DNA from: Armatimonadota bacterium
GTDB taxonomy: Bacteria; Armatimonadota; HRBIN16
Assembly: GCA_942492855.1 (NCBI GenBank)
Contig: OW818647.1
Span: 1,142,264-1,206,263 of the forward strand
Direction: 5' to 3'
DNA: 64,000 nucleotides
Positions 13,954 through 60,825 of the stretch are shown piece by piece. The stretch's first letter is position 1, and every line of letters starts with the position of its first letter. Below the pieces are notes generated by a model. That model saw only the letters and a program-made list of their open reading frames with translations, did not search any database and had not been told where the DNA came from. The translations under genes were made by a program, and so were the position numbers.

Positions 13954-13964
13954 GGGAGATATAG

Positions 13965-14765
13965 ATGTTTGTAGAAGATTATCGTGAATGGCATGAATTG
14001 GATGATCATGAAAAGCTGAAGTTGGTTAAAAAGCTGAAGCAGATTGTAATAGAAGTAGTAAAAGGTGATGTCTACCCTCGGCAACATAATAGTGAATACA
14101 GCTACCTTCACTACAAGATCATGCGTGCACAAATCGACCTTGTTCCTGAGATTGTAGAGATGTGCAACAACGCAGCTGGGCTTATATCTTATCTTGAAAC
14201 TGAAACAAAATCTATCAGTGATGGAGCAGAAATAGTAAATACCCAGTTCGCTCCACTCCTTGCGGTCCTTAGCAGTTTTCCTGGTGATGATCCGATATCT
14301 GATGCCATCACGGGATTAGGGATTGACCAGATCAACAAGGTATGGTCAAGGTGTTTAGAGAGGCGAACAACCGAACCTGATGCGGCGATTACATCAGCTC
14401 GATCCCTAGTAGAAACGGTATGTAAGCACATAGTACTCGAACCTCAAGACGCAGATGATGAGGACCTTGACTTTGTCGTGCTATACAAAAAAGCAGTCAC
14501 CAAGCTAAACCTGCATCCTACTCAGGCTGTAGACAAACAATACAAACAACTACTACAAGGATGCCTAAGCATCATAAATCCTATTGGAACTATTCGTAAC
14601 TGGACGGCAGATTCCCATGGTAGTGATCCTAAAACCGTTCCTGTATCGGTGGATGAGGCAACGCTGATAGTAAATATAGCAGGCAGTATCGCGATGTTTT
14701 TGCTTACCAAGTGGCATAACGAACCGCTAAAACCAGCAGATAACCCATTCGGATTATCGTTTTAG
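13965..14765 (+). CDS. Abi_C-like protein (abortive-infection C-terminal domain motif RNWTADSHG), a putative phage-defence protein
   Basis: 266-aa ORF in an AT-rich island. It has a C-terminal R-N-x4-S-H-G motif and an acidic, helical N-terminal region. Confidence 0.4.
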   Translation: MFVEDYREWHELDDHEKLKLVKKLKQIVIEVVKGDVYPRQHNSEYSYLHYKIMRAQIDLVPEIVEMCNNAAGLISYLETETKSISDGAEIVNTQFAPLLAVLSSFPGDDPISDAITGLGIDQINKVWSRCLERRTTEPDAAITSARSLVETVCKHIVLEPQDADDEDLDFVVLYKKAVTKLNLHPTQAVDKQYKQLLQGCLSIINPIGTIRNWTADSHGSDPKTVPVSVDEATLIVNIAGSIAMFLLTKWHNEPLKPADNPFGLSF

Positions 14766-15054
14766 TGATTCCTCGAGATGTGTTACAATGAGGGAAATGA
14801 CAGACAGCCAACTGAGATGCAGTAATTACCCATGGGGAATACAGTTTACAGTTATAGATATGCCTCTCTATGAACACAATAACTACCATCTCTGGCAACC
14901 TTTCCGTTGTCATTATTACGGTTATGCACGAACGTACATATTTTTCTTCTTATTTTAAAATAAGTGGTTAAAGCGGATGGGAGTGTGGTTCTTTTACAAT
15001 CAAACGACATATCACCTGCCAACTAAGAGACCACGGTTGAACAGAGGTTGCTGC

Positions 15055-15645
15055 ATGAAAGACTTTCCCATGCATATCATAACAAAACCCCTTCTGGGTT
15101 TGGCACTCTGCGGGTCATTCCTACTGATTCGCATATTCACCCCGGGTCATCCGTTCTGGTTGAAATATCAGTCATTCACGGTGCCGTTTATAACAATTAC
15201 ATTGTTTTATGTTTTGTGGTCACTTGTTGAATACCGTAGTAACATATCTAGGGTATACCGAACTATCAGCTACAGGATAAGAAAATATCAAGAACGACGA
15301 TTGACTATGCAACTGAGCGAACTAACTGGTGAAGAACTGTTGCTAGCTTGCTGTCTGTCTTACAATGAGACGGTGAATTTACCTACCGACTACCAAGCTG
15401 TAAGAACACTCAGGAAGATACGACTAGTTAAACAGAGTCGCGTATCTGGTGATTCTTCAGTATATGCAACCAGGTTTTGCCGTCAATGGTATCTCGATAT
15501 CGCTCATATCGTGTTGCTAGAAAAAATCAAGACCCGTGACGAACTAGATGATATACAATGTCCGATTCTCGAGAGGATTGTACCTCATTTGAAAGATACG
15601 ATAATGTTTAACATAGATTATGCAAGAATCGTAAATGAATGGTAA
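15055..15645 (+). CDS. Hypothetical membrane protein (2 N-terminal TM helices)
   Basis: The track ORF is 14977..15645. I use the internal ATG (MKDFPMHIITKP) at 15055 because AGAGG lies 8 nt upstream. Confidence 0.4.
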   Translation: MKDFPMHIITKPLLGLALCGSFLLIRIFTPGHPFWLKYQSFTVPFITITLFYVLWSLVEYRSNISRVYRTISYRIRKYQERRLTMQLSELTGEELLLACCLSYNETVNLPTDYQAVRTLRKIRLVKQSRVSGDSSVYATRFCRQWYLDIAHIVLLEKIKTRDELDDIQCPILERIVPHLKDTIMFNIDYARIVNEW

Positions 15646-15985
15646 ACATCGCAGATTTCTTTCGGGTAAAATGCCCCTAGGGCAGTTAGCTTTCGTATCA
15701 CAGGAAAACTAGAGCGGCATAAGTCAGGGTGACTACATCGGCCTGGTGCACCGCGATCCGCATGATGGCGATGTGGTTCTGGTGGATACGCTCGACGGTC
15801 CGCGCCATGCCCGTTGGACCGATGGTATGACCGCCCTGGCCGTGTTTGAGGGGTTCTACAGCTACAGCGCAGAGTAGGGTGACTGGCTGGTCGCCCATGT
15901 GCCGAGCCAAACGAAAAGAAGGATTCCCCGCGTGCGATGGTGAAGGTTACCGCGCAACACATCGCCCGTTAAAGGAGCCTTCACC

Positions 15986-16555
15986 ATGAAAGCTATCGTG
16001 CCCATAATCGGCCTTGTAATCGTGGTCGTATTCATGGTCGTAATCTACAATGGCATCACGGCGTTCAACACAAAACGCGTATCACAGAAGGATGTATGGA
16101 AGCAGGCCCAGCTCATCACCACCGACCTGCTGTTAAGTCCAAAAACGGCACAATACCCCAAACTGGGTGAACGCGGCGTGGAAGTGGAAAACCGCGGAGA
16201 TTCCACATACTGGGTTAAGGGTTTCGTCGATTCGGCCAACGGCATGGGTGTTCCCGTGCGCACACGCTTCGAAGCAGTCATCCAGTGCCTTGGTGCCAAC
16301 AAGTGGAAGACCGTATCATACGACACTGAAGAAGCTAAAGCCATACGCAAGATTACAGAGGATGTTACAAAGGCGTTTGATGACGGCATGAAACAAGTCA
16401 ACGAGATCACGGCCAAGGCTGAGGCTGAACAGCAGCGAGCCGAACGCCAAGCCCAGATAGAGGCCGCGCAACTCGAAGCACAGCAGCGCCAGCTTGAAGC
16501 GCAGCAGGCACAACCAGCACCACAACCCGCCAGCAATTGGGGTGGATCGCAATGA
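15986..16555 (+). CDS. Hypothetical membrane-anchored protein with a C-terminal Gln/Ala-rich coiled-coil
   Basis: 189-aa ORF with an N-terminal TM helix (IVPIIGLVIVVVFMVVIY) and an EAEQQRAERQAQIEAAQLEAQQRQLEAQQAQ tail. AGGAG lies upstream. Confidence 0.5.
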   Translation: MKAIVPIIGLVIVVVFMVVIYNGITAFNTKRVSQKDVWKQAQLITTDLLLSPKTAQYPKLGERGVEVENRGDSTYWVKGFVDSANGMGVPVRTRFEAVIQCLGANKWKTVSYDTEEAKAIRKITEDVTKAFDDGMKQVNEITAKAEAEQQRAERQAQIEAAQLEAQQRQLEAQQAQPAPQPASNWGGSQ

Positions 16556-16635
16556 TGGATACCATCCCAGCCGAGGGCTGCCGTGTGATCGGCGTGGGTA
16601 AGGCACTTACGCGTGGAAAAAGGGGTTTTAAATGA
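16555..16635 (+). CDS. Conserved micro-ORF copy 2 (MDTIPAEGCRVIGVGKALTRGKRGFK). It is translationally coupled on both sides: a TGATG overlap upstream and an ATGA overlap downstream.
   Basis: The start ATG overlaps the stop of 15986..16555, and its own stop overlaps the ATG of 16632..17606. It is a paralog of the 13885-13953 segment. Confidence 0.35.
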   Translation: MDTIPAEGCRVIGVGKALTRGKRGFK

Positions 16636-17606
16636 TGGTGATAACTTTTATATTGGATGCAATCATGTGGTTTTTCAAGAACGTCATTCCGACGATGCTT
16701 GGTGTGTTCCTTGCATTTGCATTGGAAAACAAACGAGCTCACGATGTAAGGAACAATGAATTCAAGGTTAGTTTAGAGATGGCAATAAGGGAATGTACTA
16801 ACTTGAAAAAAACCATCGATGAAAATGTGGCACCTGTGAATGAGGAATTTAACATGCAGGGTGGCGGTATCCACACCGGCCAGGCGAGAATGCTTGAACC
16901 CACAGCTTTGCGGACCCTACTAAACTATCCTTCTGTGATCGGGCAGGAACTAGAGCAGGTGTACCAGATCATTGATGTATGTAAGACGCTAAACATGTAT
17001 TACAGTGCACGTTATGATCAGACAGTAGTCCGGATCGGATATAATCCCACCCAGTTGTCGGCAACAAACTTTTCTATCATAGGCTATACTAAACAAGCAA
17101 TTGAAGAAATCGATAAATTTGTCACTAGTATGAACCATTCGAATCACTGCATTAGTCGTGACAAGCCATTTTGGAGACGCATACTAATGAATGAACGAGC
17201 CAATATGTATACCGCTGTAGTGGTCTGTGGCGTCCTGTCCGGTTATGTCGGCGCAATGATAGCCATGGAACGCCCTATACGGCAGCTTAAGGTACAACAG
17301 ATCGACATCATAATCCATAACAAAGTAGTCGCCACGCTGGGCACAACCAAAGGATCAGGATGCCTATATCTAAACTACGATAATGGCCGACCGTTGATCG
17401 TTCTGGGGACAGCAAGCAAACAGCCTGGGCTGTCGTTGATGGACGAAAGAGGAAGGTCCAGAGTTGGGTCGGCTATTGGGAATGAAGGATCGGTAATTTG
17501 GCTGTCGAATGGTAAAGGGAAGGACCTCATCACGATCTGCGTCAAAGGTAACAATCCGTCTGTGACGTTGCGTGGGGCAAAGACCGAGAAGGAATACAAG
17601 CCGTAG
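16632..17606 (+). CDS. Hypothetical protein (N-terminal TM helix, a second hydrophobic segment MYTAVVVCGVLSGYVGAMIAM, and a C-terminal soluble region)
   Basis: 324-aa ORF. An internal 23-aa segment is duplicated at 34290-34380 on the minus strand. Confidence 0.5.
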   Translation: MMVITFILDAIMWFFKNVIPTMLGVFLAFALENKRAHDVRNNEFKVSLEMAIRECTNLKKTIDENVAPVNEEFNMQGGGIHTGQARMLEPTALRTLLNYPSVIGQELEQVYQIIDVCKTLNMYYSARYDQTVVRIGYNPTQLSATNFSIIGYTKQAIEEIDKFVTSMNHSNHCISRDKPFWRRILMNERANMYTAVVVCGVLSGYVGAMIAMERPIRQLKVQQIDIIIHNKVVATLGTTKGSGCLYLNYDNGRPLIVLGTASKQPGLSLMDERGRSRVGSAIGNEGSVIWLSNGKGKDLITICVKGNNPSVTLRGAKTEKEYKP

Positions 17607-21649: not shown

Positions 21650-21955
21650 TACCGAGGGGTGTTTCACAGCCGGATGTATTTGCAGTTGATGATCCACAGA
21701 TCAGGAAACGACCGCGCCGGTTTTTTAACAAGATACCAATCGCCTAACAGCCCATCCCGGCGCGGTCTGGCGGACAGCCCACATCAGCAGCCCATCCCGC
21801 CGCGACATCAATGTCTCGGCTATTAGCCAATAAGCCTGCTGAAGCAGTCTGGGTCGCCGTTGGCGTGAATATCCTCAGCCCGTTTCAACGGGCTTCCGTT
21901 TAATTAGCCGTGGCATTCATGCCGCGGAATGGAAGGCGAGGCCCAAACTGAGCCC
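21650..21955. repeat. Composite intergenic repeats (GACCGCGCCGG, GGCGGACAGCC, the CCGCGACATCAATGTCTCGGCTA hairpin, the CCCGTTTCAACGGGCTTC hairpin and GCCGTGGCATTCATGCCGCGG)
   Basis: Shared subunits with 830-1130, 13630-13700 and 43820-43970. Confidence 0.55.
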
Positions 21956-31768: not shown

Positions 31769-32809
31769 CTACTCGTCCTCTGGCTCCTCATCGTCTGTGC
31801 TGACGGGCCCCTCTACCGGGGTGCCGTTAAGGATGATGCGGGTCTTGGTGTCGATCTCGGCGAACACCTCGGGATTCTGGCTCAGGAAGTTACGGGCGTT
31901 CTCCCGACCCTGTCCCAGCCGGACCTCGCCGTAGGTGAACCAGGTGCCGCTCTTTTTAATGACATCTTTTTCCACGGCCATGTCCAGCACGCCGCCGATT
32001 TTGCTGATGCCCTTGCCAAACATGATGTCGAACTCCACCTGCCGGAAGGGCGGGGCCACCTTGTTCTTGACCACCTTCACACGCACGCGGTTGCCCACCA
32101 CATCGGTGCCCTGCTTCAGGCTGTCGACGCGGCGCACATCCAGGCGCACGCTGGCCCAGAACTTCAGCGCGCGGCCGCCAGGAGTGGTCTCGGGGTTGCC
32201 GTACATCACGCCGATTTTCTCGCGTAACTGGTTGATGAAGATCGCCACGGTGCCGGTCTTGCTGATGGAGCCGCCGATTTTACGCATCGCCTGGCTCATC
32301 AAGCGCGCCTGGATACCCACATGGGCGTCACCCATCTCGCCTTCGATTTCCGCCTTCGGCACCAGCGCCGCGACGCTGTCCAGCACGATCACATCAATCG
32401 CACCGGTGCGCACAAGAGCGTCCATGATCTCCAGCGCCTCTTCGCCCGTGCCTGGCTGCGAGACGTAGAGCTGGTCGATATTGACGCCGATATTGCGTGC
32501 ATAATCGGGGTCCAGCGCATGTTCCGCATCCACAAACGCGCAGATACCGCCGTTGAGCTGTGCTTCCGCCACTATCTGCAGTGCCAGGGTGGTTTTACCG
32601 GAGCTTTCCGCGCCGTATATCTCCACGATGCGTCCGCGAGGCACGCCACCGATGCCCAGCGCGTAGTCGAGTGCAATGGATCCGGTGGGGATCGACTCCA
32701 CCTGCATACCGGTTTTGTCGCCCAGTCGCATCACGGAGCCTTTGCCAAACTGCTTTTCAATGAGCCCGAGGGCGATATCTAATGCTTTCTGTTTGTCTTG
32801 TACGGCCAT
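31769..32809 (-). CDS. recA: Recombinase RecA
   Basis: Walker [13 protein letters not shown] and full-length collinearity with RecA, including an acidic C-terminus. GGAGG lies 8 nt upstream of the ATG. Confidence 0.95.
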
Positions 32810-32973
32810 GATGGGACCTCCGGATATAGTTTATATATGTATACGCAAATATAGTACCATATTGTGAAAGTAAATGCGTGATACAACCGGATAAATGATA
32901 CCCCAGAAGTGTGTAAATGTGTTTCTGCTCCTTGGGTGAGGGTGGAAGGAGTCTGGAGATAATGGCAGAAATG

Positions 32974-33429
32974 TTATGAAAGGAATAGGGAGGGGTTGGT
33001 GATTGTTGGTTGGCAGGCTTTCATGTTATATTTCTGTATGATTAAGCTGCCTAGACTGATAAAGTGACTGTCATAAGTGTGAAGTTCAGAAATAGATTTG
33101 GTATGAATGGATGTTGCCAGGATGATGGCATCACATGTATTCATCCCAACATCATTCGCGATCAGGGCAGCTTGTCGTGATATGAACCGTGTTACTGGTA
33201 CTACCTCAATATTCTTCGTGTTGAAAAACTTATCGAATGGTGTGATGTCAGAGGATTGCCCCAATTTCCTGCACTCTGTGACGCACACGGCAGAACACAT
33301 GATACCCACCTTATCCTGGCCGGTTAGCTTTATCCAATGGTCGAGTTCTGCGAAGCGGGCTGCATCTTGGGTAACGTATGAGATTATGCACGACGAATCC
33401 CAGCACACAATCAGCTTACTCATTATCAC
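32974..33429 (-). CDS. PIN-domain-like protein (putative nuclease/toxin), second gene of a two-gene module in an AT-rich islet
   Basis: Candidate acidic PIN residues: VCWDSS, TEC, CDAIILATSI. It overlaps the upstream gene by 14 nt. Confidence 0.35.
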   Translation of the reverse strand: MIMSKLIVCWDSSCIISYVTQDAARFAELDHWIKLTGQDKVGIMCSAVCVTECRKLGQSSDITPFDKFFNTKNIEVVPVTRFISRQAALIANDVGMNTCDAIILATSIHTKSISELHTYDSHFISLGSLIIQKYNMKACQPTITNPSLFLS

Positions 33430-34159
33430 GATCCCGCATATCGCTTATATATTTGTCGGGGTTAAAGTCTGGTCCAGCGTTTATGAACTCGTGATCTTCA
33501 ATGGAGACCTTAGGGAGCTCTTCGATGTGCTCGAGAGTGATCTTTACAATCTGCCCATGCTTGTTTAGGCTGGCTTTACCATATACCAAAACTCTGTGAT
33601 CAAACAGGTGGCTGTACCCAATCACCGTGTTTCTGTCCGTCACCACACATGCCACTGACTGCCCGTTGACCCTGGTTATCTTCAATTTCGGCGTGCCATG
33701 CAGGTCTAGCCCTTCGAGAACCCCAGTCAGCTCGGTGTATTCATAACTAACAGGGCGAACATGCTCATCAAGGTTGCGATAGTCTTTATAAGTAATCGGG
33801 TAGGCTTTCCCACCGACATCGATACTAGTCGATCCAATCTGGGCAGACTTCAGAAACAAATCACGGCAACTGCTGATTGCGGAGTAGGGAAGTCGGTCAA
33901 AAGAACGGGTGTCACCAGACAATATCGCTGGTAGATGCTCAGCAATACCTTTAATAGATGGTGCTTCGATGCCTATATGGAACGGGCTCGCTTTAGATAT
34001 CGAAGCAACTTTAAGCATGAGTTTCAGAGTGCGCCACTCATTGATATCTATCATCTCCAGCTCGCGATAGCACTTATTGAATTCTCCAAGAAACCCAGAG
34101 AGCTCTTCTATGCCGAATTCGCCATCTATTGTAATGACTATGTTTTCCATCAGTATCAC
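33416..34159 (-). CDS. Hypothetical protein, first gene of the PIN-like module
   Basis: 247-aa track ORF. The start is uncertain because my reading disagrees with the track by one base near 34140. Confidence 0.4.
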   Translation of the reverse strand: MILMENIVITIDGEFGIEELSGFLGEFNKCYRELEMIDINEWRTLKLMLKVASISKASPFHIGIEAPSIKGIAEHLPAILSGDTRSFDRLPYSAISSCRDLFLKSAQIGSTSIDVGGKAYPITYKDYRNLDEHVRPVSYEYTELTGVLEGLDLHGTPKLKITRVNGQSVACVVTDRNTVIGYSHLFDHRVLVYGKASLNKHGQIVKITLEHIEELPKVSIEDHEFINAGPDFNPDKYISDMRDRDNE

Positions 34160-34178
34160 CTAGCCTAATGTTACCATA

Positions 34179-34406
34179 TCAACAAGTGGTATTGCGCTCA
34201 GTGTTACTGCCCACCGCCCCAGTTGCTTGCAGGCACCGCCGGTGCTGTTTGCTCTGTCGGTTGAGGTGCTGGTTGCTGAGGCATGGCACCTCTTCTACCG
34301 TGGCTGTCATCGCACCAACATAACCTGACAGAACACTACAGACTACAACAGCGGTATACATATCGGCGCGTTTAGTCATATGGTTTACCGGGTTGTGGTC
34401 GACCAA
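34179..34406 (-). pseudogene. Relic fragment homologous to an internal segment of the island-1 gene 16632..17606 (...RADMYTAVVVCSVLSGYVGAMTAT...)
   Basis: About 70 bp at roughly 80% identity to 17195-17265. The flanking ORF has no other convincing features. Confidence 0.3.
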
Positions 34407-43729: not shown

Positions 43730-44010
43730 TATCGGACGGATCATTCAGATCCGTCCGATGCTACGCCTCACATGCTCAAAACCCAGTCATTTACCCACAT
43801 ATTTATACAGAGCCATTATGTCACCAATTCCGCGACATAAATGTCTCGGCTACTGAACAACAAGACTGCTGAAGCAGTCTGTGATGTCGTTATTAATATC
43901 GGTGCAGCGTTCCGAAGCCCGTTTCAACGGGCTTGATGATCAATAGCCGAGACATTGATGTCGCGGCACTAGATGGGTACGACCCCAATCTGTATTGGCA
44001 GGTAATCGGC
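43730..44010. repeat. Composite intergenic repeat (the CCGCGACATAAATGTCTCGGCTA...TAGCCGAGACATTGATGTCGCGG inverted pair, AAGACTGCTGAAGCAGTCT and CCCGTTTCAACGGGCTT hairpins)
   Basis: Near-identical to the element at 900-1070. Confidence 0.6.
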
Positions 44011-44020
44011 TGGCTAAAAC

Positions 44021-44416
44021 CTACGGTTCGCTCACATGCCCGACGGTACACCGCACATCCATACCACCGCGGATGTTGTATTTGGTCACCACCTGCAGCT
44101 CATCGGTGAGCAGTACCCTCTTCATATCTTCAAATATCCGCTTGGTGGCACCCTCCTGGTAGATGCCCACATCGCGATAGGAAATGAAGTAGTACTTCAA
44201 GCTCTTCAGTTCGATGATTTTGCCGCCAGTGGGTTTGTATTTGATCTGCACCGTCGCCACGTCGGGCAAGCCGGAGAAGGGGCAGACCGCCGAGAACTCT
44301 TTCGTCTCGATCTCGATCAACTGCTGAGGCATATCGAAGTCGACTACCTCCAGCGCTGCCGTGTCGATGGCATCCTCGGCCTTCAAATCGTAAATGCGTC
44401 CCTCTGCGTATGGCAT
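44021..44416 (-). CDS. queF: NADPH-dependent 7-cyano-7-deazaguanine reductase (QueF, YkvM type)
   Basis: The [20 protein letters not shown] region and the C-terminal IRGG motif are present. The start MPYAEG lies 1 nt after the queC stop, with GAGGAG upstream. Confidence 0.8.
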
Positions 44417-47494: not shown

Positions 47495-48075
47495 GCCGCT
47501 ACCTTTCATCGGTCGGATCAGCGTGATCCGACCGATCTATTCCCTGTAAAACAGCCGCATATGCCCCGTGTTTATTGGCCCCCTATACTAATAGTATTTG
47601 GGTGACTGCTCAGCCCCGGCAATGGTTATTCATTATTACCCGCATGCGTCGCGGCGGTTTCCTGCGCCGGCCGGAGCGAAGCGACACCGGCCGCTAATGA
47701 TCTTCCACGCGGTGCAGGAACCCGCACTGGACGCAGTTCCCGGAGCGTCAGCTCCCGGAACGTAGTCGTGTGGGTGACTAAACCCGTGGCACGGTGGCTA
47801 GTCGTCTACAATCAGCACCGCCGGCCTTTGGCGACGGGTTCCGTGGCCCGTCCGTGACTGCGTCCCGGTACGGGCACTGTCACCCATCGCTGATCAATAT
47901 CGGCCCCCTTCTGCGGGCTGTCACCCATCAGACCGGAGTGGGCCTGAGACCTCTGCCACCGCTGGCGACGCGCCAGACCGTCGCGGACATTGCCATTCAA
48001 GGCTGAGAAGTTACGTATTTGGGGTATAATCAAACTGATCATTCACCTGTTTGCACACAAACACGGGAGGCTACG

Positions 48076-50367: not shown

Positions 50368-51234
50368 TTAGCCCCGCATCGCGCCTTTTTGCCCGCACAC
50401 AAGCGCGCCGCGCTGGTTCGCGGCCTCATTGATCGCCTCCAGGGATTCCCCCCGCCACAACGCCATGCTCATCGCCGCGGTGAAGGCATCGCCGGCGCCG
50501 ACGGTATCGACCACCTTAACCTGTAGACCCGGGTGCTCCGCGCTCTGATCTCGGGTGACCAGCAGACTGCCATTGGCACCCCGCGTGTAGGCGCACATTT
50601 GCAGATCGTAATCTCGGCAGAATCGTCTCAGTAGCGGCTCGGGTTCGGCATCTGGCCAGCCCAGCAGCCTGGTCACTGTCAGCAACTCCGCATCGCTGAT
50701 TTTGAAGACCGTGGCCACCTTCAGCGATTGCTCGATCAGCTCCCTGCTGTAGTAATGCTGCCTGAGGTTCACATCGAACACGCGGATACTGTCCTTCGGC
50801 ATCGCATGCACGAAAGCCATGATGCTGGCCCGGCTGACCGTGCTCCGTTGTGCCAGACTGCCGAAGCATGCGATCTGGCTGCTTTTAGCAAGCTCCAGAG
50901 CCTCCGGGCTACATGATATGTAATCCCACGCCACCCCCTCATGGATGACGAAATGCGCCACACCCTCATCATCCAACTGCGCTTCCGCGATGCCGGTGGG
51001 ATGTTCCGTGTCACGCTGAACATACTCCGATGACAGCCCGTTTTCCGCCAGTATCTGAATGGCCGAGTCACCCAGTTCATCACAGCCGACGCGGCTGATG
51101 ACCGTGCTCTGGCCGCCCAGGCAGGAAGCGTGGAACGCGAAGTTGGCCGGGGCTCCGCCCAGAGCCTTCCCCTGGGGGAGCACATCCCAGAGCAGCTCCC
51201 CGATGCCGCAAACGATGGGTTTGGCTTCTGTCAT
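50368..51234 (-). CDS. PfkB-family carbohydrate kinase
   Basis: GG motif near the N-terminus and the C-terminal DTVGAGDAF motif. Confidence 0.75.
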   Translation of the reverse strand: MTEAKPIVCGIGELLWDVLPQGKALGGAPANFAFHASCLGGQSTVISRVGCDELGDSAIQILAENGLSSEYVQRDTEHPTGIAEAQLDDEGVAHFVIHEGVAWDYISCSPEALELAKSSQIACFGSLAQRSTVSRASIMAFVHAMPKDSIRVFDVNLRQHYYSRELIEQSLKVATVFKISDAELLTVTRLLGWPDAEPEPLLRRFCRDYDLQMCAYTRGANGSLLVTRDQSAEHPGLQVKVVDTVGAGDAFTAAMSMALWRGESLEAINEAANQRGALVCGQKGAMRG

Positions 51235-52253
51235 ACGAGGTCCACGAACACCTTCATCGACTTATCGGCGGATTGCTCGATGAAATGATAGGCCTCCAGG
51301 AACTGCTCGAAGGGGAAGTGTTTGGTCTCCAGCGGAGCGGTTTGGATACGTCCGTCGGCGATCCACTGCACCGCCTCTGCGTAGTCCTCATGGCGATACA
51401 TCAGCGTGCCGACCAGGCTGATCTCATGCTCACCCATGTTGGCCATATCGATGGCTGGCTTCTTGCCGAAAACGCCCAGCACCACGATCGTGCCGCCTTT
51501 GCCGATGGTAGTGATCGCGGCGTTCATACTCTGCTCGGAGGCAGCGGCCTCCATCGCCAGGTCGAATCCCTCGTCACCGAACACCCGACGGCTGGCCTCG
51601 GGCAGCGTCTCACGCGAGGCGTTGCTGACCTCATCGATGCCCACCTGCTTGGCGATGTCCAAGCGGTAGTCGCTGAGGTCGACGATCAGAACCTTCTTGG
51701 CACCACGGACTCGGCACGCCTGGGCCGCAAAGATGCCGATGGGCCCTGCGCCTAGTACCACCACATTTTCGCCCTTGATTTTACCTGCCCGACCGGTGCT
51801 GTGAACCGCCACCGCCACGGGCTCTACGAAAGCGCCCTGCTCCAACGTGAAGTTATCCGGCAGCGGTACGATCTTGTCCGCCTCGGTGACGTACACATCC
51901 TGCGCCACACCGGGGGCCTGGAAGCCGCGCACCTTCAGCTTCTCGCAGACATTGTACTGGCCCCGCAGGCAGGGTCGGCATTGGCCGCAGACCTCTTGCG
52001 GGGTTGCGGTGACCTTCTGGCCGATGTGGATCCCGGTCACACCCGGGCCGATGGCCTCGATCACCGCGCTATACTCATGGCCCTGCACGATGGGGTAGCT
52101 GGTGAAGGGGTGCGTGCCGTGGTAGACGTGCATGTCGCTGCCGCAGATGCCGATCCGCTGAATGCGCATCGCCACCTGTCCTGGTCCAGGGGTCGGGGTG
52201 GGAACATCGCGAAACTCGATAATTCCTGGTGAAGTCATGATCGCTTGTCGCAT
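51231..52253 (-). CDS. Zinc-dependent alcohol dehydrogenase (L-iditol/threonine dehydrogenase-like MDR)
   Basis: The catalytic zinc ligand lies within GICGSDMH, the structural zinc motif is CGQCRPC, and the Rossmann motif is GAGPIG. Confidence 0.75.
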   Translation of the reverse strand: MRQAIMTSPGIIEFRDVPTPTPGPGQVAMRIQRIGICGSDMHVYHGTHPFTSYPIVQGHEYSAVIEAIGPGVTGIHIGQKVTATPQEVCGQCRPCLRGQYNVCEKLKVRGFQAPGVAQDVYVTEADKIVPLPDNFTLEQGAFVEPVAVAVHSTGRAGKIKGENVVVLGAGPIGIFAAQACRVRGAKKVLIVDLSDYRLDIAKQVGIDEVSNASRETLPEASRRVFGDEGFDLAMEAAASEQSMNAAITTIGKGGTIVVLGVFGKKPAIDMANMGEHEISLVGTLMYRHEDYAEAVQWIADGRIQTAPLETKHFPFEQFLEAYHFIEQSADKSMKVFVDLV

Positions 52254-52675
52254 AGTGTGAGCTCCTTATTGGGTGGAATGGCGAACGCTTAAGGATAGTA
52301 TACAGGGAGATAGGAGGCAAGAAGAAGAGGAGTTAGGAGAAGCTGGCGCATGGGGGCTGGCGGTTGTGTTATGGTGTTCTACCGCCTGCTTTCAGATAGG
52401 AGTTTTTAGCGGTTTATTTTTTAGGTGTATACAGGCACCCCAGCTGAAGCTGCACGTATATTTTGTTCTGTCGCCAATTCAACGCACCTACCGAAGCCTA
52501 ACTGCATGTGACATAAATCTCTCTATACAGCCTTCATAGTTGATGAATGTAGGGGGCATATACATATCGATTGCTGTTAGTAGATGTATAATCATACTGG
52601 CGGTCACAATCGGTCACAATACTGCCAAATACAATCTTTGTCAGACACAACTATTGAGGTAATGAGGTTATTGTT

Positions 52676-55300
52676 ATGTGTGATGTATATAGCGATATTT
52701 TAACATGGTCTAAAACCATTCCTGTATGGCAACGGGATGCTTTGCGCCGTCTTCTTAATGATTCACTGTCGCAAACCGACTATGATGAGTTAGTCGATCT
52801 TTGCTTGGTGGAAAATGGTATAGAATCTCAATTACCATCTCCTCTGTCATCTATCCCTCTGTCTGAAGATCATTTACCCGTTAGGGATGTCATTACTGGG
52901 CCTGTCACGCTGACATCGATACATCATGCAACGAATGTGAATAAACTAGACCCTTCGTCTATGTTGCAGTTCAATCCTGCTGGTCTGACTGTGATATATG
53001 GTATGAATGGTTCGGGTAAATCAGGTTATTCACGTATACTCAAACAAGTATGCCGGTCAAGACATTCTGATGTTCGTGTATATCCCAATGTTTATGATGC
53101 TGCCACTGCTACCGTCCCATCAGCCATTATTGATTATCAAAACGGGGCTCTACCGTCTAGTTGTTCGTGGTGTCACGGTCAGCCATCAGATCCTGCGCTA
53201 TCATCCGTAACAGTATTCGATTCTAGATGTGCACAGGTCTATGTCACCCATAGTAACGAGGTTGCATACCGTCCATTTGGCCTCGATATTTTGGATAAAC
53301 TAGCCGCTACTGTCGATGAATTAAAGCGCACAATCACATCACTTGCGAACAGTGTTGTAGTTGACGTGGTCATTCCTCCTGATAAGATCAAGCAACATCT
53401 AGCATCATCAGGTTTATTGCCCATCAACCACTCAACCGATATGAAACGTGTTCACGCGTCAGCACGATTTGATGCGTCAGATGAAACTGCGCTTAATACT
53501 CTCATCAAGCAAATGGATGTCGCCAACCCGACAGAGAAAATCGCAGAAATAAACATCATAATCAAGAACATATCAGAGTTACGTCTTCAACTAAAAACTT
53601 TGAATGGTTTATATTCGGATGAAGCCTATTCAGAACTATCTTCACATATCGAAGCCCTGAAACTTGCTCGTGAGATATACATACTATCTCAATCGGTCTT
53701 TATTGCCGATTTACCAGGTACCGGAACTGATCCATGGCGTAAAATGTGGGATCATGCTAGAGAGTTTCATACAAAGCATGCATATCCCGACAAGCCATTT
53801 CCGAATATAGATTCGGATGCGAAATGTTTGTTGTGTCAGCAACCTCTTGACACGCTTAGTCGCTCTAGGCTAAGTCGTTTTGAAGAATTCGTTTTGAATA
53901 AAGCTTCGTCTGTATTGGCAGATAGTGAAGCCACTATAGCCACTGACCAAAAAAAATACCTGGATAATCCGAATCTGTCAGTGGACGAAGCGCTGCTTAA
54001 AGTCATTTCGTCAATGTGTCCCAATCTTGACGAGGCGATTCGTATATTCATGGATAGTGTTAAGGGTGAACGAGAACGGATATTACCGAATATCGAGAGT
54101 TGCATTGATGTAAAATACACAAAATGTTGTTTCGACATCAAGCCGATAGACCGGTTAATCGCCTCCTATAACGATCAGATATCGGCTCTAGAGCAAGCCC
54201 AAAATCCGGGGGCATCTGCAGCTATGGAAGCTAGTCACCTAGAACTCATCACTGGTCAATGGTTACTTCAGAATATTGCATCCATAGATTCTGCATATAA
54301 CAAGTTGAAATATAAGCATTCATTGCTACAGATTGCCGATTCGCTACGAACAAACGCGATCACGACGCTATCTACTGCACTTTCTCATAAGTATATTACT
54401 GCCAATCTAAAAAATTCAATTCTCACAGAATGCGATGCGCTCAATATCTACAGCATGAAGGTTGTTGCGGAATTTACCGGTAATAAAGGATCATCGAAGA
54501 TGTCTCTAAATCTCGATCGTAAATTACTTACCAATGCACCGATCAATGACATCATTAGTGAGGGAGAATTCCGAGCCATTTCGTTAGCTACATTCTTCGC
54601 GGAAATATCCCAGTCAGATGATAAATCGGCCATAGTTCTAGATGACCCAGTTTCTTCCCTTGATCATCATTTCAGAAATCTGGTTGCCTCCAGGATTGTT
54701 CGCGAAGCTGCAAACCGTCAGGTTATCGTATTTACCCATGACTTAGTTTTTGTAGATAGCCTCATAACTGAATGCGACATTATGGATTATACGGCTCCTA
54801 CCATATATAGTCTTTTTTGCACAGGACTATTTACGGGCTACACAAATCCAGGCCTTCCCTTCATAGGAATGAAAGCTAGAGATCGCGTGGTCTTCCTTCA
54901 GCACCATGTTGATAGTATCCGTGACCTGTATGCTAATGATCCCAGTCAATATGAATATGAGGTATATGTTTTCTATAATAACGTACGAAGAACATGGGAG
55001 CGTGTTGTTGAGGAGTTGTTACTCAATAGTATTGTACTTCGCCATTCAGATTCTATTCAAACCGAAAGGTTGGAAAATCTGGCTGATGATATAACAAGAG
55101 ACGATTGGTTGAAAGTACATGGCAGTATAAAACGAGCTTCGGGTATCATCGAAGCTCATGACCATTCAAACGCCACTGGGACTCGTCTGCCACCTCCGGC
55201 TCAGTTAGTAGCAGATCTCAAGGTTATACGAGATTACATCACCGAACTTAATAGACGTGCTCGCAGCTCTCGAAAACAACTCCCTGCGTCATCCGGTTAG
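52676..55300 (+). CDS. AAA_13-family Rad50/SMC-like ABC ATPase with a coiled-coil insertion and a CxxC zinc hook (RloC/PrrC-like architecture). The C-terminal 230-aa domain is of unknown function. A defence-island protein.
   Basis: Walker A is GMNGSGKS, the zinc hook is KCLLCQQPLD in mid coiled-coil, the Walker B/D-loop is VLDDPVSSLD, and the H-loop is FTHD. The region is AT-rich. Confidence 0.65.
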   Translation: MCDVYSDILTWSKTIPVWQRDALRRLLNDSLSQTDYDELVDLCLVENGIESQLPSPLSSIPLSEDHLPVRDVITGPVTLTSIHHATNVNKLDPSSMLQFNPAGLTVIYGMNGSGKSGYSRILKQVCRSRHSDVRVYPNVYDAATATVPSAIIDYQNGALPSSCSWCHGQPSDPALSSVTVFDSRCAQVYVTHSNEVAYRPFGLDILDKLAATVDELKRTITSLANSVVVDVVIPPDKIKQHLASSGLLPINHSTDMKRVHASARFDASDETALNTLIKQMDVANPTEKIAEINIIIKNISELRLQLKTLNGLYSDEAYSELSSHIEALKLAREIYILSQSVFIADLPGTGTDPWRKMWDHAREFHTKHAYPDKPFPNIDSDAKCLLCQQPLDTLSRSRLSRFEEFVLNKASSVLADSEATIATDQKKYLDNPNLSVDEALLKVISSMCPNLDEAIRIFMDSVKGERERILPNIESCIDVKYTKCCFDIKPIDRLIASYNDQISALEQAQNPGASAAMEASHLELITGQWLLQNIASIDSAYNKLKYKHSLLQIADSLRTNAITTLSTALSHKYITANLKNSILTECDALNIYSMKVVAEFTGNKGSSKMSLNLDRKLLTNAPINDIISEGEFRAISLATFFAEISQSDDKSAIVLDDPVSSLDHHFRNLVASRIVREAANRQVIVFTHDLVFVDSLITECDIMDYTAPTIYSLFCTGLFTGYTNPGLPFIGMKARDRVVFLQHHVDSIRDLYANDPSQYEYEVYVFYNNVRRTWERVVEELLLNSIVLRHSDSIQTERLENLADDITRDDWLKVHGSIKRASGIIEAHDHSNATGTRLPPPAQLVADLKVIRDYITELNRRARSSRKQLPASSG

Positions 55301-55718
55301 TTGTTGTTTATCCGCCTGCCGCGGTATAAGTCACACCGCAGATACCCCATGTCGGTCCAAACCGGTAAGGGGCATGGCGTGCCGTCCCTGGCGCCCGCTT
55401 CAGCGGGCCACTCACTGATCAGCCGTGCGGTGAGGAAACCCGCTTCAGCGGGTGCCTGAACCCGCGGCCACCTGGCCACTCTACCAGTTGGTATTGGATC
55501 CTGCTAGTCGCCTCTACCATAGGTCCATGGGTGAGAATCTCATACCTCTCATATGGGGTGTCGCACTAGATGCTCTCGTCGTCAACAACGTGTATATAAT
55601 GTACTGGGTTTCGTTTCGCGGCTGAGATATGACGAAACTCTTAAACAGCCTAGTAGTGTTCTTCAGTGTATTGCGGTTTTCAACAAACGATCAGTTATGT
55701 TAATGATAAGGGCTAAAA

Positions 55719-56619
55719 ATGCATAATCCGGTAAGCATACCTGTTAACTACACAAAACCTCACATGAGTTATGATGATCAAGCGCATTTGCTTGTAAAAA
55801 GAGGATTGTCTGGTGATTTTACAAAGATCAAGAATGCACTTCAGTGCATTAACTACTACAGACTTTTCTGCATACTGGTATATATACCGTATAAATAACA
55901 ATGGCAAGGATATTCAGCCAGGAATCACAATCGATCATATTTTGGATTTGTATGAATTCGATCGAAACCTGAGGCTATTAGTTTTAGATGCCATTGAACG
56001 AATTGAGATTGCTTTACGTACAGACATTGCATACTATCATTCGAAAGACTATGGCCCATTTGGCTACATAAACTCGATATCTTGTAGCAAGGACACAGAC
56101 CTTATCGATCGATTAAGGCAATGCAGAGACAACGTCAATAATTCGCATTCTGATTTCTACCGCCACTATAGAGGAAAGTATCAGAACCAAGACTTTCCCA
56201 TCTGGATGTTGGTGGAGACTATCAGTTTTGATCTACTTGTGCGGGTATACAAAATACTTCCCAAACAGATGAAGTTCGCCATAGCTAATAAGTATGGCTT
56301 GCCAGCTCGCACATATAGCTCATGGATGTCAACACTGAAAAGTGTAAGGAATACATGTGCTCATCACGGCCGATTATGGAATACAAAACTATCTACAAGA
56401 CCACAAATGCCGGGTAATATGAGCACGTGGCAATCAAATATACAGGATAGTGATTCTATTTTCATGTTATTGACCGTATGCAAGTATTTTCTTGACTTCA
56501 TTGATCCAAATAATACATGGCGCCAGAAGGCGATTGATCTTATCAGCGTTCGTCCCAATGATCAGCTACAACAAATGGGTGTACCGCAAAACTGGGCCAA
56601 TAGCCCGATGTGGAAGTAA
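55719..56619 (+). pseudogene. Abi_2-family (AbiD/AbiF-like) abortive-infection gene with a +1 frameshift near 55860
   Basis: In one frame the N-terminus reads MHNPVSIPVNYTKPHMSYDDQAHLLVKRGLSGDFTKIKNALQCINYYRL. In the track frame (55813..56619) the remainder reads SAYWYIYR...RNTCAHHGRLWN, which carries the Abi_2 signature. Confidence 0.6.
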
Positions 56620-56827
56620 ACACCAGCATTTTTTCCAAATTTACATAAAATGTATTGACATTTTGTATTGCAAAGTGTAATATTAGAGATACGAACACTC
56701 TAACAGTCCAACGATTTGGAACACCAAATCTGGGCTCTGGCTTAGAGTATTTTAGGAAAACAATTATGCGGGCCAAAGCTCTTTGGCCCGCATTAATGTT
56801 TTCTTCACTGTATCATCTGATGATATA

Positions 56828-57217
56828 TTAAAAAGCCATCAGTTTCCCGGGTTTCCTCTTCTCTTTTTCGTCTCGTGTCTTTTCAAGAAAGTCGTGCCCT
56901 TGCCAAGTCAACAGTGTTTGTTTTGGCACTTTTTTAATATAGTTTGCCGTTTCTAAAAGATGAATATGGTAACTGACGATACGCTCATCATATTTACCAC
57001 GTATCTCATCGCTATCCATTATGCCATTCAGACTGTCGTGAACTTCAACATAGGCTAATAGTGCGGTAGCGAGGGTCATGTCACGGGTCATGTCTTTTCT
57101 CCTGATGTAAATTTGGAATTCGTTATCCACCTGTATTGTAACTGCGAATCTAGGTTTACACACCCCTATGTCGTAAATATACCAAACATCACATATCTCA
57201 ACCTGCACCGTTACCAC
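56828..57217 (-). CDS. Hypothetical protein (island gene)
   Basis: 129-aa ORF in an AT-rich island. I recognise no motifs. Confidence 0.3.
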   Translation of the reverse strand: MVTVQVEICDVWYIYDIGVCKPRFAVTIQVDNEFQIYIRRKDMTRDMTLATALLAYVEVHDSLNGIMDSDEIRGKYDERIVSYHIHLLETANYIKKVPKQTLLTWQGHDFLEKTRDEKEKRKPGKLMAF

Positions 57218-57343
57218 CGCGCGCTACCATAATGCTACATCCGCATCATTTTGCCCTTCTCCTCCGCTCTCCCCATTCGCCCTCCCTCGCCTTTTTCTGC
57301 TACAATACCCGTGGAATGCAAACGTCACTTAATGAGGGTTTCG

Positions 57344-57985
57344 ATGCCTGGAGCACCCACAACTAAAAGACAGTGGATTTATATGGATGAAGCAGGGGAC
57401 CCAGGCTTCAAACTAGGCAATGGGTCATCCTCGCACTTTATTCTGGGTATGTGCATCTTCGATGACCATACCGAGGCGGCGGCGACATCGCAGAGTATCA
57501 TCCAGGCAGCCCAACGTCTTGGCTACAAGGATGAATTCCACGGCAAAAATGCGCAGGCCACAGTAAGTACAGAGTTTTTCAACAGCATCGTGGCTCATCA
57601 CTTTAAAACTCGCCTCATTTTCGTGGACAAGAGTATTATATGGAGCCCTAACTTTAAATCAGACCCAAAACTCTTCTACCGGTCCATTGCAGGCATGTTC
57701 TTCAGGTATAACGGCGGCTTAATAGATAATGCAAAGATCTTCATCGATGGCGGTATAGATTCTAGGTTGGAAGCGGAAATAAAAACATCAGTGAACAACC
57801 TGACTTCTGGGCAAATACTGGATATCTAATTCGTTGATTCAAAAACCCACAGGCTCATCCAACTTGTCGATATGGTTGTCACCGCGGCCTATAAAGGTCG
57901 TATACATAAAAATCCTCGATGGCTCCAGCACTGGAACCAGCTAAGACGTGCCGGCCGTATAGATGATGAATGGTGGTTCCACTAA
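57344..57985 (+). pseudogene. DUF3800-family gene with an in-frame TAA at 57827-57829
   Basis: The N-terminal motif is WIYMDEAGDPGF. After the TAA the same frame continues for 51 codons as FVDSKTHRLIQLVDMVVTAAYKGR...WWFH*, which contains the DUF3800 C-terminal IQLxD motif. Confidence 0.55.
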
Positions 57986-58632
57986 AAATAGTGCGACCCT
58001 CTATCCTATCTGCCGTAGGCAGAGGTTGACGTCGTAGACGCTTTTCGGATAGAGGGCCATTTGCATCTTTATATTACCACAGTCTGTATACTTAAGATGT
58101 TAAATATCCAGGCATTTTTACCATATTTCCATAGGTTCAAAATCACTGTTACTCATCGACCTTATCCGCATACAGTATGCTCCTACTTTTAGTCTCAGTG
58201 AGGTGACTGCCAACGACACGGGCACTAATACTTTAGTTGGCTGAAGTTAGACTTAAGTTCAACTCGATTCTGAGTCAGTAATACCAGATTTTGTGCTTAA
58301 AACTGCTGATTCTGTATTGATGACAAGATGTTCTAATACGTAATTAACTGCTGATTTTTATGTAAGTTTACTAAAATGTGACTCATTTTGTGCTTGAAAT
58401 CTAGGAAATATGGCCAGTCTATTCAGTAATTATTCAACAATAAATAAGTAATTAATCGGTGAGGTTCGCTTTTCGCACCCCCCATCACACCAAGGACACG
58501 GTACGCCATGTCTCTACCTCCGCGTCCTCCTCGCCTCCTCCACTCCTATCCTATTCCCTCCCCCCTTTGCGCCAGCACGACAGATGCACCATAATACACA
58601 TAAGACCACCATCCGAAAGGAAGACCATTCCA

Positions 58633-60825
58633 ATGAGCAGTGCAAACATCACCCGCAGGAAACCAGCCGCCGTGAAGTTCGTGAAATACCACGGCGTGCC
58701 CACGCTCACCATCAACGGCAAGCCGCACCCCGGCACGATGTGCATCTACTACGGCAACTCGCCGGAGTATATCCGCTACTTCTCCAAGGCGGGGGTGAAG
58801 CTGTTTGACTTCACCAACACGGCCTCGGCGCCGTTCTGGGAGGGGTTTGGCGGGCAGCTTTGGTCGGCGCCGGACAAGTTGGACTACACGAGCTTTGACA
58901 ACATGGTGGCGGGGGTGCTCAAGGCCGATCCGGAGGCGTACATCCTGCCGAGGCTGGACATCCGCGCACCCGACTGGTGGCTGGACTCGCACCCAGACGA
59001 CCTCTCGATCTACGAGGCGGACGACGGCACCCGTAAGCTGATGCCATCGCAAAGCTATGTGGATGGCCTGGTGAATGCCGGCTTCGCATTGAACTCGTCC
59101 ATGACGAAGCCGATGCCCAGTTGGGCCTCCGAAGCGTGGCGGACCGACACCTGCAAGGCCCTCCGGGAGCTGGTGAAGCACGTCGAACAGTCGCCGTATG
59201 CGGATCGGGTGATCGGCTTCCACCTCGCCAGCGGGGCCAGCCAGGAGTGGTTCATGTGGCAAAGCGAGTTTGAAGGCATCACCACCGACTTCTGCAAGGC
59301 CAACACCACACTCTTTCGGACGTGGCTGAGCACAAAATACCGCACCGACAGGGCACTTCAGATCGCCTGGAGGCAGCCCAACGTTACATTCGAAACCGCC
59401 GTCCCCCCACCCTCGAGTGTCCGCAGGAAGACCGAGTTTGGCCAATTGCGCGACCCCGCGAAGGAGCAGTGGACGATCGACTACCTCATCTACAACTCGT
59501 GGATGACGGCAGACACCATCGAGTGCCTGGCGCAGGCTGTCAAGAACGCCTCCGGCGGCAGTAAACTCGTCGGGGCGGCATATGGCTATGTGGTCGGACT
59601 GGCCGGTGAGCCCCGGCAGCAGAACTCCGGTCACCATGACCTCGATCGGCTTCTGCACAGCCCGAACATCGACTTCCTGTATAGCCCGGCGTTGTATTGG
59701 GAGTTCCGCGCACTCGGCGTGGGTACCCCCGCCACGATGTCCCTGCCAGGCAGCGTCGCGCTGCACGCGAAGGGCTGGATCAACGAGACCGACTTCGTCA
59801 CCTCTATCACAGAGAAGGGCTACAGCGAGGCGTCGGGCGTGGATGAGGACTCTCTGCAGCAGCGCCGCGCACAGGGCTGGATCATGGCAAACGGCATCAT
59901 GCAGGGTTGGTTCAACGTGGGTAACATCAACTATGAGCACCCACTGCTTCAAAAAGAGATCGCCAATCTGACATCTCTCGCGCAACGGGCGCAGACCTGC
60001 GACCGGTCACCGGTGGATAAAATGGCTTTTGTAGTCGATCCGAAGAGCGTGTTCTATCATGGAATCGGCGGCCTGATGGGGCGCGAACTGCTGATGATGC
60101 AGTTACCAGCACTCGTCCGTTATGGCGGCGCGTCTGGCGCCTACTCGCTATCTGACCTGGACAAAATCCGGAAACATAAAGTGTTCCTGTTCGCGAATGT
60201 CATGGCGCCGACCGATGCGGAGCGCAGGCAGATCGACGCGCTCAAGCGCGACGGCAACATCCTGATCTTCCTGTATGCCCCTGGGGCCTACCGCCATGAT
60301 ACGATCGACATGGGTGCGATGCGGGCGATGACGGGCATCGAGATCAAACGGGGTGGACCATCGGCGAACTTGCACATCACCATCAAGAACGACGACGCGG
60401 CCTATTCCAGCTTGAACGGCCTCGGCTACGGCACCATGCGGAAAGTGGATCCCGTGTTTGTAGCTGATGATCCTGACGCCGTGGTTCTGGGCCGCCTTGA
60501 TGACGGTCGGCCAGGGCTGGTCGTCAAACGGCACAGCCACTGGACCTCGATATACTCATCGTCGCCGTTAATACCGGCGGAGCTGATTAGAGCGATCGCC
60601 GCAGAAGCGAATATCCACATGTACGCGAAGGCGGGCGATGCGCTCTGGGCCACAAAAGAGGTGGTCACCATCTCGGTGAACGAGGCGGGTGAGCGTGAGA
60701 TCCTTCTGCCCGAGAAGCGTCGCGTTTATGATGCCTACGATGCGCGTGATCTTGGCATCACCGACCGCTTTACAGTCAATATCGCCAAGAAGGACACGCG
60801 GGTGTTCTTCACCACGCGTTCATAA
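58633..60825 (+). CDS. Glycoside hydrolase, GH42/beta-galactosidase-like family (tentative)
   Basis: A 730-aa TIM-barrel-like N-terminal half and a trimerisation-like C-terminal half. I start it at MSSANITRR; the track ORF begins at 58459. Confidence 0.45.
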   Translation: MSSANITRRKPAAVKFVKYHGVPTLTINGKPHPGTMCIYYGNSPEYIRYFSKAGVKLFDFTNTASAPFWEGFGGQLWSAPDKLDYTSFDNMVAGVLKADPEAYILPRLDIRAPDWWLDSHPDDLSIYEADDGTRKLMPSQSYVDGLVNAGFALNSSMTKPMPSWASEAWRTDTCKALRELVKHVEQSPYADRVIGFHLASGASQEWFMWQSEFEGITTDFCKANTTLFRTWLSTKYRTDRALQIAWRQPNVTFETAVPPPSSVRRKTEFGQLRDPAKEQWTIDYLIYNSWMTADTIECLAQAVKNASGGSKLVGAAYGYVVGLAGEPRQQNSGHHDLDRLLHSPNIDFLYSPALYWEFRALGVGTPATMSLPGSVALHAKGWINETDFVTSITEKGYSEASGVDEDSLQQRRAQGWIMANGIMQGWFNVGNINYEHPLLQKEIANLTSLAQRAQTCDRSPVDKMAFVVDPKSVFYHGIGGLMGRELLMMQLPALVRYGGASGAYSLSDLDKIRKHKVFLFANVMAPTDAERRQIDALKRDGNILIFLYAPGAYRHDTIDMGAMRAMTGIEIKRGGPSANLHITIKNDDAAYSSLNGLGYGTMRKVDPVFVADDPDAVVLGRLDDGRPGLVVKRHSHWTSIYSSSPLIPAELIRAIAAEANIHMYAKAGDALWATKEVVTISVNEAGEREILLPEKRRVYDAYDARDLGITDRFTVNIAKKDTRVFFTTRS

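Follow-up and report, generated by a model that had tools for sequence, protein, structure and literature searches.

A variable AT-rich locus with defence-type genes between conserved metabolic genes of an Armatimonadota genome

RloC is a Rad50-like, zinc-hook anticodon nuclease that excises the wobble nucleotide (PMC2610378, PMC3458546). It is defined by the motifs of an ABC ATPase, a coiled-coil insert with a CX2C motif and a C-terminal Arg-X3-Glu-X36-52-His triad, all in proteins of 658-897 aa (PMC2610378). The C-terminal domains of PrrC and RloC are classed as divergent HEPN RNases, whose motif is defined as Rx4-6H, and further ABC-HEPN fusions are known (PMC3710099). DUF3800 proteins are predicted RNase H-like nucleases that occur together with retrons and Cas12a2. 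They carry a described QxxD motif (PMC7736814), and eleven unrelated structured RNA motifs of unknown function, DUF3800-I to XI, have been found next to their genes (Weinberg et al. 2017, PMC5737381). Here we describe an AT-rich locus of an Armatimonadota bacterium (lineage HRBIN16) that shares features with these systems. It lies in a stretch of 64,000 nt (GCA_942492855.1, contig OW818647.1, positions 1,142,264 to 1,206,263 of the forward strand), which is called the window below and in which all coordinates without a locus name are counted. Between a dehydrogenase and a glycoside-hydrolase-like gene, the locus (the island in the following) contains genes for an ABC/SMC-type ATPase and for Abi_2, DUF2513 and DUF3800 proteins (Table 1). 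To our knowledge, phage defence has hardly been characterised in the phylum Armatimonadota.

The region is probably a hotspot of gene turnover between conserved metabolic genes, filled with horizontally acquired cargo of the defence type and lacking dedicated integration machinery. The composition of the island sets it apart from its surroundings. Its G+C content is 42.6% (0.426) versus 0.566 in the remaining window, and it is the window's lowest-GC stretch of that size (mean of such stretches 0.551, standard deviation 0.038). Sliding windows of 1 kb give values of 0.40-0.49 at about 52.3-58.5 kb and of 0.58-0.62 on either side. The G+C content at third codon positions (GC3) is 0.36 in the ATPase gene, 0.43 in Abi_2, 0.42 in DUF2513 and 0.52 in DUF3800, compared with 0.74-0.79 in the dehydrogenase (0.79), the glycosidase and their neighbours. 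A first-pass annotation, made from the letters and their open reading frames (ORFs), had described an AT-rich block of about 6 kb with an intact 874-aa Rad50/RloC-like AAA_13 ATPase, an Abi_2 gene split across two frames, a DUF3800 gene cut by TAA but readable to its natural end, and a small gene on the opposite strand, the whole flanked by dehydrogenase and glycoside-hydrolase genes and free of tRNA or integrase genes at its borders. The composition, the profile searches and the alignments reported here bear out this inventory, the small gene being identified as DUF2513; the glycosidase match in Pfam is weak.

The edges of the island (left 52373/52374, right 58510/58511) were set by homology with the sole close relative, L001 (OY781964.1), an Armatimonadota chromosome from a metagenome-assembled genome (MAG) that was obtained by scanning a genome collection with the dehydrogenase. 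A second locus from the same scan, L002, is cut off at the gene and was not usable for comparison, and among metagenomes the dehydrogenase had no match above 76% identity. The dehydrogenase protein is 99% identical to its L001 orthologue and the glycosidase protein 93% over 751 aa; both flanks show about 90% nucleotide identity in BLAST. Between the same two genes L001 has about 1.5 kb of mostly different DNA, versus the 6.1-kb island of the window. Homology stops at 52373 and restarts at 58511, and only 57895-58109 is common to both in between (83-85% identity). The L001 locus is without the ATPase, Abi_2, DUF2513 and most of the DUF3800 gene, in line with the block proposed by the first-pass annotation. 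The shared piece consists of the last ~30 DUF3800 codons (…RIHQNPRWLRHWNQLIHAGLIDDEWWFH) and the 3' flank, and the remainder of the L001 interval is an unrelated 158-aa ORF plus a GC-rich native repeat, which occupies the place of the window's AT-rich stretch upstream of the glycosidase. The content of the locus has thus diverged since the common ancestor, and the locus therefore behaves as a turnover hotspot. Like known defence islands and chromosomal hotspots between core genes, it groups genes of the defence type, is foreign in composition, contains pseudogenes and differs in content from a close relative; unlike them, it has no mobile-element hallmarks at its borders, and it is seen against one comparison genome.

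Table 1. Features of the island and its flanks in window coordinates; an empty strand cell marks features to which no strand is assigned.
Feature	Position	Strand	Basis or detail
Left flank, zinc-dependent alcohol dehydrogenase, native	51231-52253	-	Pfam ADH_N and ADH_zinc_N
Variable AT-rich region (island) between dehydrogenase and glycoside hydrolase	52374-58510		Low GC and L001 homology gap
Intact 874-aa ABC/SMC-type ATPase, RloC-like layout, PADLOC candidate PDC-S06	52676-55300	+	Profile match
Walker A, G109-S116, GMNGSGKS	53000-53023	+	Invariant G109, N111, G114, K115, S116
CxxC, C384-L-L-C387, putative zinc hook in helical insert	53825-53836	+	C384 and C387 invariant in 30 homologues
ABC signature SEGE 628-631, Walker B/D-loop DDPVSSLDH 656-664, H-loop T687/H688	54557-54739	+	Invariant columns
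C-terminal helical domain, R771-x3-E775-x52-H828 and R789, RloC/PrrC-type triad pattern	54986-55159	+	Alignment
Host-like GC-rich (0.60) spacer between ATPase and Abi_2, nested hairpins	55301-55560		Composition and folding
Abi_2/AbiD-like (HEPN) pseudogene, +1 frameshift	55719-56619	+	Repaired-protein alignment and profiles
Abi_2 frameshift site, TTTT where TTT restores R-L-S-A-Y-W	55864-55867	+	Sequence reading and alignment
HEPN R-x4-H motif of Abi_2, RNTCAHH, intact	56347-56367	+	Invariant R210, N211, C213, A214, H215, H216
Bidirectional intrinsic terminator between convergent Abi_2 and DUF2513	56756-56803		12-bp stem, 7 GC pairs, T-tracts on both strands
DUF2513 gene, intact, 87 aa from M43, AGGAG 8 nt upstream	56828-57091	-	Pfam DUF2513
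DUF3800 cassette promoter/leader, common to paralogous locus	57287-57343	+	85% identity over 41 nt to L048 9943-9983; TACAAT box
DUF3800 (RNase H-like) pseudogene, one nonsense codon	57344-57982	+	Profile and end-to-end alignment
TAA nonsense codon in DUF3800 (CAA/Gln in P0242)	57827-57829	+	Alignment
Conserved 79-nt structured element directly after DUF3800 stop, three-way junction	57994-58072	+	Conservation and folding
Window-specific AT-rich (0.38) non-coding stretch upstream of glycoside hydrolase	58111-58510		No L001 homology
Right flank, glycoside-hydrolase-like gene, native	58633-60825	+	Weak Glyco_hydro_42 match, 23.4 bits

The island is a composite and not one imported block. Its G+C content is uneven, with a second richer segment (0.53) at 57218-57343 besides the spacer that parts the ATPase gene from the rest. 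The spacer suggests either at least two acquisition events or the insertion of a native repeat into the island. The DUF3800 gene was probably already at the locus in the common ancestor with L001, because L001 keeps the tail of the gene and its 3' flank there. As judged from these sequences, the DUF3800 cassette appears to be resident in the genus and to have occupied the locus before the split from L001.

Two of the island genes are interrupted. Abi_2 resembles AbiD and AbiF, HEPN abortive-infection proteins of Lactococcus, in its length class, in its intact Rx4H motif and in matching their profiles strongly, and it differs from them in being frameshifted after codon 49. Its N-terminus (from 55719) and its body (55813-56619) lie in different frames, the extra T breaking an otherwise continuous reading frame. 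Dropping one T turns AGA CTT TTC TGC… into AGA CTT TCT GCA TAC TGG, which encodes RLSAYW. The repaired protein matches Pfam PF07751 with an expectation value (E) of 4.6e-52 (177.4 bits versus a cut-off of 25.6) and PADLOC AbiD with E 2.2e-66. Alignments with homologues of 294-310 aa cover 97% of the repaired protein, and the junction lies within an invariant NYYRLS(A/G)YW motif. The remaining invariant residues are also intact, including those beyond the frameshift. As the gene stands, the most that the frameshift after codon 49 allows is a product truncated at its N-terminus. The TTTT run was judged too short for transcriptional slippage or programmed frameshifting to be likely.

The DUF3800 gene carries a single nonsense codon. 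Its repaired product matches PF12686 (E 2.3e-13, 51.5 bits versus a cut-off of 21) and, in PADLOC, PDC-M04A, which is a candidate defence family only. Over its whole length it can be aligned with the intact paralogue P0242 (213 aa, 71% identity) and with other members of the family, which measure ~205 aa. At E up to 1e-3 this family has 516 representatives, the closest from outside the genus sharing 38% identity. The TAA precedes the QxxD motif (QLVD, 57860-57871) by 11 codons, and the frame is readable on to 57982. The DE motif (MDEAG at 57383) and QxxD are thus both present but separated by the stop, so that a single polypeptide does not contain them both; QxxD and the other invariant residues past the TAA are still intact. 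Abi_2 and DUF3800 are otherwise conserved, also past their lesions, and therefore appear to have suffered one recent lesion each.

Homopolymer indels are the commonest error of long-read assemblies. The island could accordingly be fully functional, with the Abi_2 frameshift, and possibly the DUF3800 stop, introduced by assembly or consensus errors in a long-read MAG. The frameshift is one extra base in a homopolymer, the source is a single 5.3-Mb contig of the kind typical of long-read assembly, and the perfect conservation of both genes apart from their lesions would fit as well. We nevertheless regard this explanation as unlikely. Across about 14 kb of native coding sequence, the orthologues of L001 can be aligned in single frames and with 0 indels; indel errors in this assembly are therefore rare, and the Abi_2 frameshift is probably genuine. 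Four bases make a short run for such an error; substitutions, to which the DUF3800 lesion belongs, are seldom seen in polished assemblies; and the depositors' gene calls are truncated too, at 268 aa (Abi_2) and 161 aa (DUF3800).

The borders of the island bear no sign of an integrating element. There is no tRNA within the 64-kb window and no Rfam match in it, the island being clean also at a permissive E of up to 1. Profile searches found no integrase domain in any island ORF, and the small ORFs of the spacers have no Pfam match. Flanking direct repeats of at least 14 nt were not found, and a search for att-like direct repeats or terminal inverted repeats gave only short matches that are probably due to chance (e.g. 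21-nt arms at 56630 and 58356). The region 52374-58510 shows none of the marks of a genomic island of the integrase/tRNA type. A degraded prophage or a remnant of an integrative element, in place of a defence hotspot assembled piecemeal, is distinctly unlikely. Abi_2, DUF2513 and, weakly, DUF3800 match the phage families phrog_2158, phrog_585 and phrog_9243, and the block is AT-rich and contains pseudogenes. However, structural and replication genes are missing along with integrase, tRNA and att-like direct repeats, and the composition is heterogeneous with a host-like spacer. The DUF3800 gene also forms an independent cassette at a non-prophage locus in the relative, and homologues of the ATPase occur as isolated single genes.

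The ATPase is the largest gene of the island. It matches Pfam AAA_13 with E 1.2e-24 and the PADLOC family PDC-S06 (PDLC04891) with E 3.4e-186, residues 5-862 covering model positions 4-857 of 858. It keeps every invariant column in a 30-sequence and in a 101-sequence alignment and is therefore intact and under constraint. Beyond the Walker A and CxxC residues, the invariant positions include DDP 656-658, D663 and H664, and R771, E775, R789 and H828 of the C-terminal domain are invariant across the 101 sequences. Residues 1-75 (52676-52900) form a conserved N-terminal helical domain with invariant W11, W18, D21 and R25. This domain of ~75 aa has no Pfam match and only weak PADLOC matches to PtuA; it could be a sensor or a partner-binding module of the PDC-S06 family. 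In the AlphaFold2 model of the protein, which has a predicted local distance difference test score (pLDDT) of 81.8, a helical insert at about residues 204-590 interrupts the ABC head, and the CxxC is on the loop that joins helices 352-369 and 393-429. In Foldseek the head retrieves SMC, Rad50, RecN and JetC (E 1e-8 to 1e-4), and a sequence search of the PDB matched the signature region only, of Rad50, AriA and RLI.

The distribution of the ATPase is patchy. The identical protein is found once in the protein database; identity falls to ~35% in the next matches, the top three of which lie partly on contigs labelled Armatimonadota. There are more than 1500 homologues. Homologues occur on 286 plasmid records under the bare label "AAA family ATPase" and as lone genes among housekeeping genes (Armatimonadota loci L020 and L021). 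At two other Armatimonadota loci, the G+C content of the homologue is also below that of its surroundings. The neighbours differ between the window, L020, L021 and the plasmid pPSR1, and no partner gene is conserved. In L020, the closest homologue (35% identity) adjoins a gene resembling Mrr_cat/NA-iREase1 restriction endonucleases (10706-11518, minus strand), which again hints that the PDC-S06 family belongs in a defence context. With this family, the ATPase shares the end-to-end hidden Markov model match, the single-gene organisation and the mobile, patchy distribution; it differs in its low identity to its nearest relatives, and PDC-S06 itself is known as a computational candidate.

The layout of the protein is RloC-like. 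It fits all three defining features, the triad R771-x3-E775-x52-H828 being a pattern match only, and its length falls within the RloC size range. A helical insert bearing an invariant CX2C separates its ABC motifs, its C-terminal domain has an invariant Arg-X3-Glu-X52-His, and the gene stands alone with no restriction-modification system linked to it. It differs from RloC in a C-terminal domain in which neither sequence nor profile comparison detects a similarity with models of PrrC or RloC, in having Ala or Gly before the triad His (Ser in RloC), in its extra conserved N-terminal helical domain, and in an insert modelled as many short helices, not one long coiled coil. The window ATPase is not classed as a proven member of RloC. 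By analogy, it may nonetheless work as RloC does, namely, as an RNase gated by the ATPase and the zinc hook that stops translation on infection, a proposal that we put forward tentatively. The ATPase head and the CxxC-tipped helical insert would hold a C-terminal HEPN-like RNase domain inactive, an infection or DNA-damage cue would release it, and the R771/E775/H828 site might then cut tRNA or other RNA, so that translation would be aborted. That the protein is a DNA-repair or chromosome-maintenance ABC ATPase (Rad50/SbcC/RecN-like) and no immune effector is very improbable: its fold and profile matches cover only Rad50, SMC and RecN heads and Rad50 too has a CxxC in its helical insert, but no Mre11/SbcD-type partner adjoins it here or at the relatives' loci, it is absent from L001, foreign in codon usage, often plasmid-borne and matched over its full length by a candidate family derived from defence islands, and its extra conserved C-terminal domain with the R/E/H triad is lacking in Rad50.

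Several points weigh against our interpretation of the locus as a hotspot with defence-type cargo. The comparison includes a single close relative, so that gain is not cleanly separable from loss. In Abi_2 the lesion is an indel in a homopolymer, as read from the assembly. The C-terminal domain of the ATPase has no PrrC or RloC profile match. It is modelled with a pLDDT of 88.8, and its best PDB matches are MNT-type HEPN toxins at non-significant scores (E 0.17-0.5, template modelling score 0.31-0.42). PDC-S06 is a candidate whose defence role has only computational mentions in the literature found, and a defence role of stand-alone DUF3800 proteins is likewise putative.

With these points in mind, we read the locus as an unexceptional, variable hotspot of the defence type in which a single candidate effector, the ATPase, is intact and two genes are freshly inactivated. 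The first-pass annotation had called it a decayed defence island, a label that is supported with some qualifications. Of the families matched in PADLOC, PDC-S06 and PDC-M04A are candidate defence families only. Decay applies to two of the four genes, with a single recent lesion each, as read from the assembly; the ATPase and DUF2513 genes are intact. The term island is justified by the low G+C content and the absence from L001, but not in the sense of a single block, since the region is a composite that includes a genus-resident DUF3800 cassette.

The paralogue P0242 of the DUF3800 gene is located at a different site (locus L048), between the AICARFT and CstA genes, in the genome of the relative and in a sister assembly. 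Between the window and the P0242 locus, nucleotide identity is ~80% in the promoter/leader and 67% in the coding sequence, as against 97.5% in a 79-nt element that directly follows the DUF3800 gene. The element is equally conserved (97.5%) in L001, where the DUF3800 gene is deleted; its copies lie at 8950-9030 (minus strand) in L001 and at 10650-10727 (plus strand) in L048. Its much higher identity compared with the coding sequence and its survival after the deletion of the gene therefore indicate that it is selected in its own right. The predicted fold has a 10-bp outer stem and two hairpins (minimum free energy -32.7 kcal/mol, z -4.2; reverse strand z -4.7), and one compensatory change, U-A to C-G, is seen in L001. 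No Rfam model matched it, even at E up to 10 on 57900-58200, nor did any of the DUF3800-I to XI models, and a scan of viral contigs for its core found nothing. The window resembles the motifs of Weinberg et al. in its stand-alone ~210-aa DUF3800 gene with DE and QxxD and in the adjoining conserved structured element, from which it differs in that the element matches none of the Rfam models and the gene carries a nonsense codon. The element may be a structured RNA of a new DUF3800-associated class, the twelfth, or else the end at which a small mobile DUF3800 cassette recombines; being drawn from three loci of one genus, this suggestion is a lead.

Some further observations concern the same cassette. 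Together, the promoter/leader, the ORF and the 3' element form a unit of 0.8 kb that is found at two unrelated loci of the genus (window 57287-58075, L048 9943-10727). On either side of the L048 cassette lies a copy of an 82-nt direct repeat with 89% identity (9789-9869 and 10895-10976), which belongs to a GC-rich motif that also occurs upstream of other genes, e.g. at 58482-58541 before the glycosidase of the window.

The DUF2513 gene, which converges with Abi_2, is small and regulator-like. Its product matches PF10711 (E 6e-11, 43 bits versus a cut-off of 29.6) as well as the phage family named above, and its likely start is M43 at 57091. An obligatory partnership of DUF2513 with DUF3800 is ruled out by the intact paralogue in L048, which has no DUF2513 neighbour.

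In the spacer between the ATPase and Abi_2 genes, the hairpin CCCGCTTCAGCGGG occurs as two exact copies enclosed by a larger hairpin. The folding excess of the spacer is moderate (z about -3.1 on either strand), and it has no Rfam or Pfam match. With up to two mismatches, the pattern CCCGCTTCAGCGGG has 9 matches in the window versus 0.6 expected; related hairpins are located at 4365, 13671, 21879, 43918 and 47904. A stretch of 41 nt of the spacer is 83% identical to the native GC-rich repeat of L001. The spacer is not a copy of the native repeat at 47537-47918, to which it is similar over these 41 nt only, and is at best a distant or partial relative of it.

That repeat belongs to a GC-rich intergenic family of ~320-380 nt with 81-90% identity (window 47537-47918; L001 8597-8913 and 14815-15211), which has no Rfam match and one copy of which sits at the "empty" island locus of L001. 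A second family of ~225 nt is present at 882-1104, 43778-44021 and 21800-21927 of the window and at 14510-14753 of L001. It matches itself on both strands and is therefore palindromic, resembling a miniature inverted-repeat transposable element (MITE). Its copy at ~43.8-44.0 kb marks the edge of another lower-GC stretch (41-44 kb). Further low-GC stretches of the window (0.40-0.47) extend over 13750-17500 and 32750-34250 and are probably the other AT-rich islands of the first-pass annotation. The 158-aa ORF of the L001 interval (9155-9631, minus strand) has a predicted N-terminal hydrophobic segment and matches nothing in Pfam, PHROGs, NCBIfam or the window.

The locus adds an example from Armatimonadota to the known defence hotspots, one that would turn over without integrases. 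The widespread PDC-S06 family gains a concrete RloC-like hypothesis from its invariant CxxC, its R-x3-E-x52-H triad and an N-terminal domain that may be a sensor. The cassette, finally, provides a clean natural example for the puzzling association of DUF3800 genes with unrelated structured RNAs: its candidate RNA, the 79-nt element, is far more conserved than the DUF3800 gene and outlives it.

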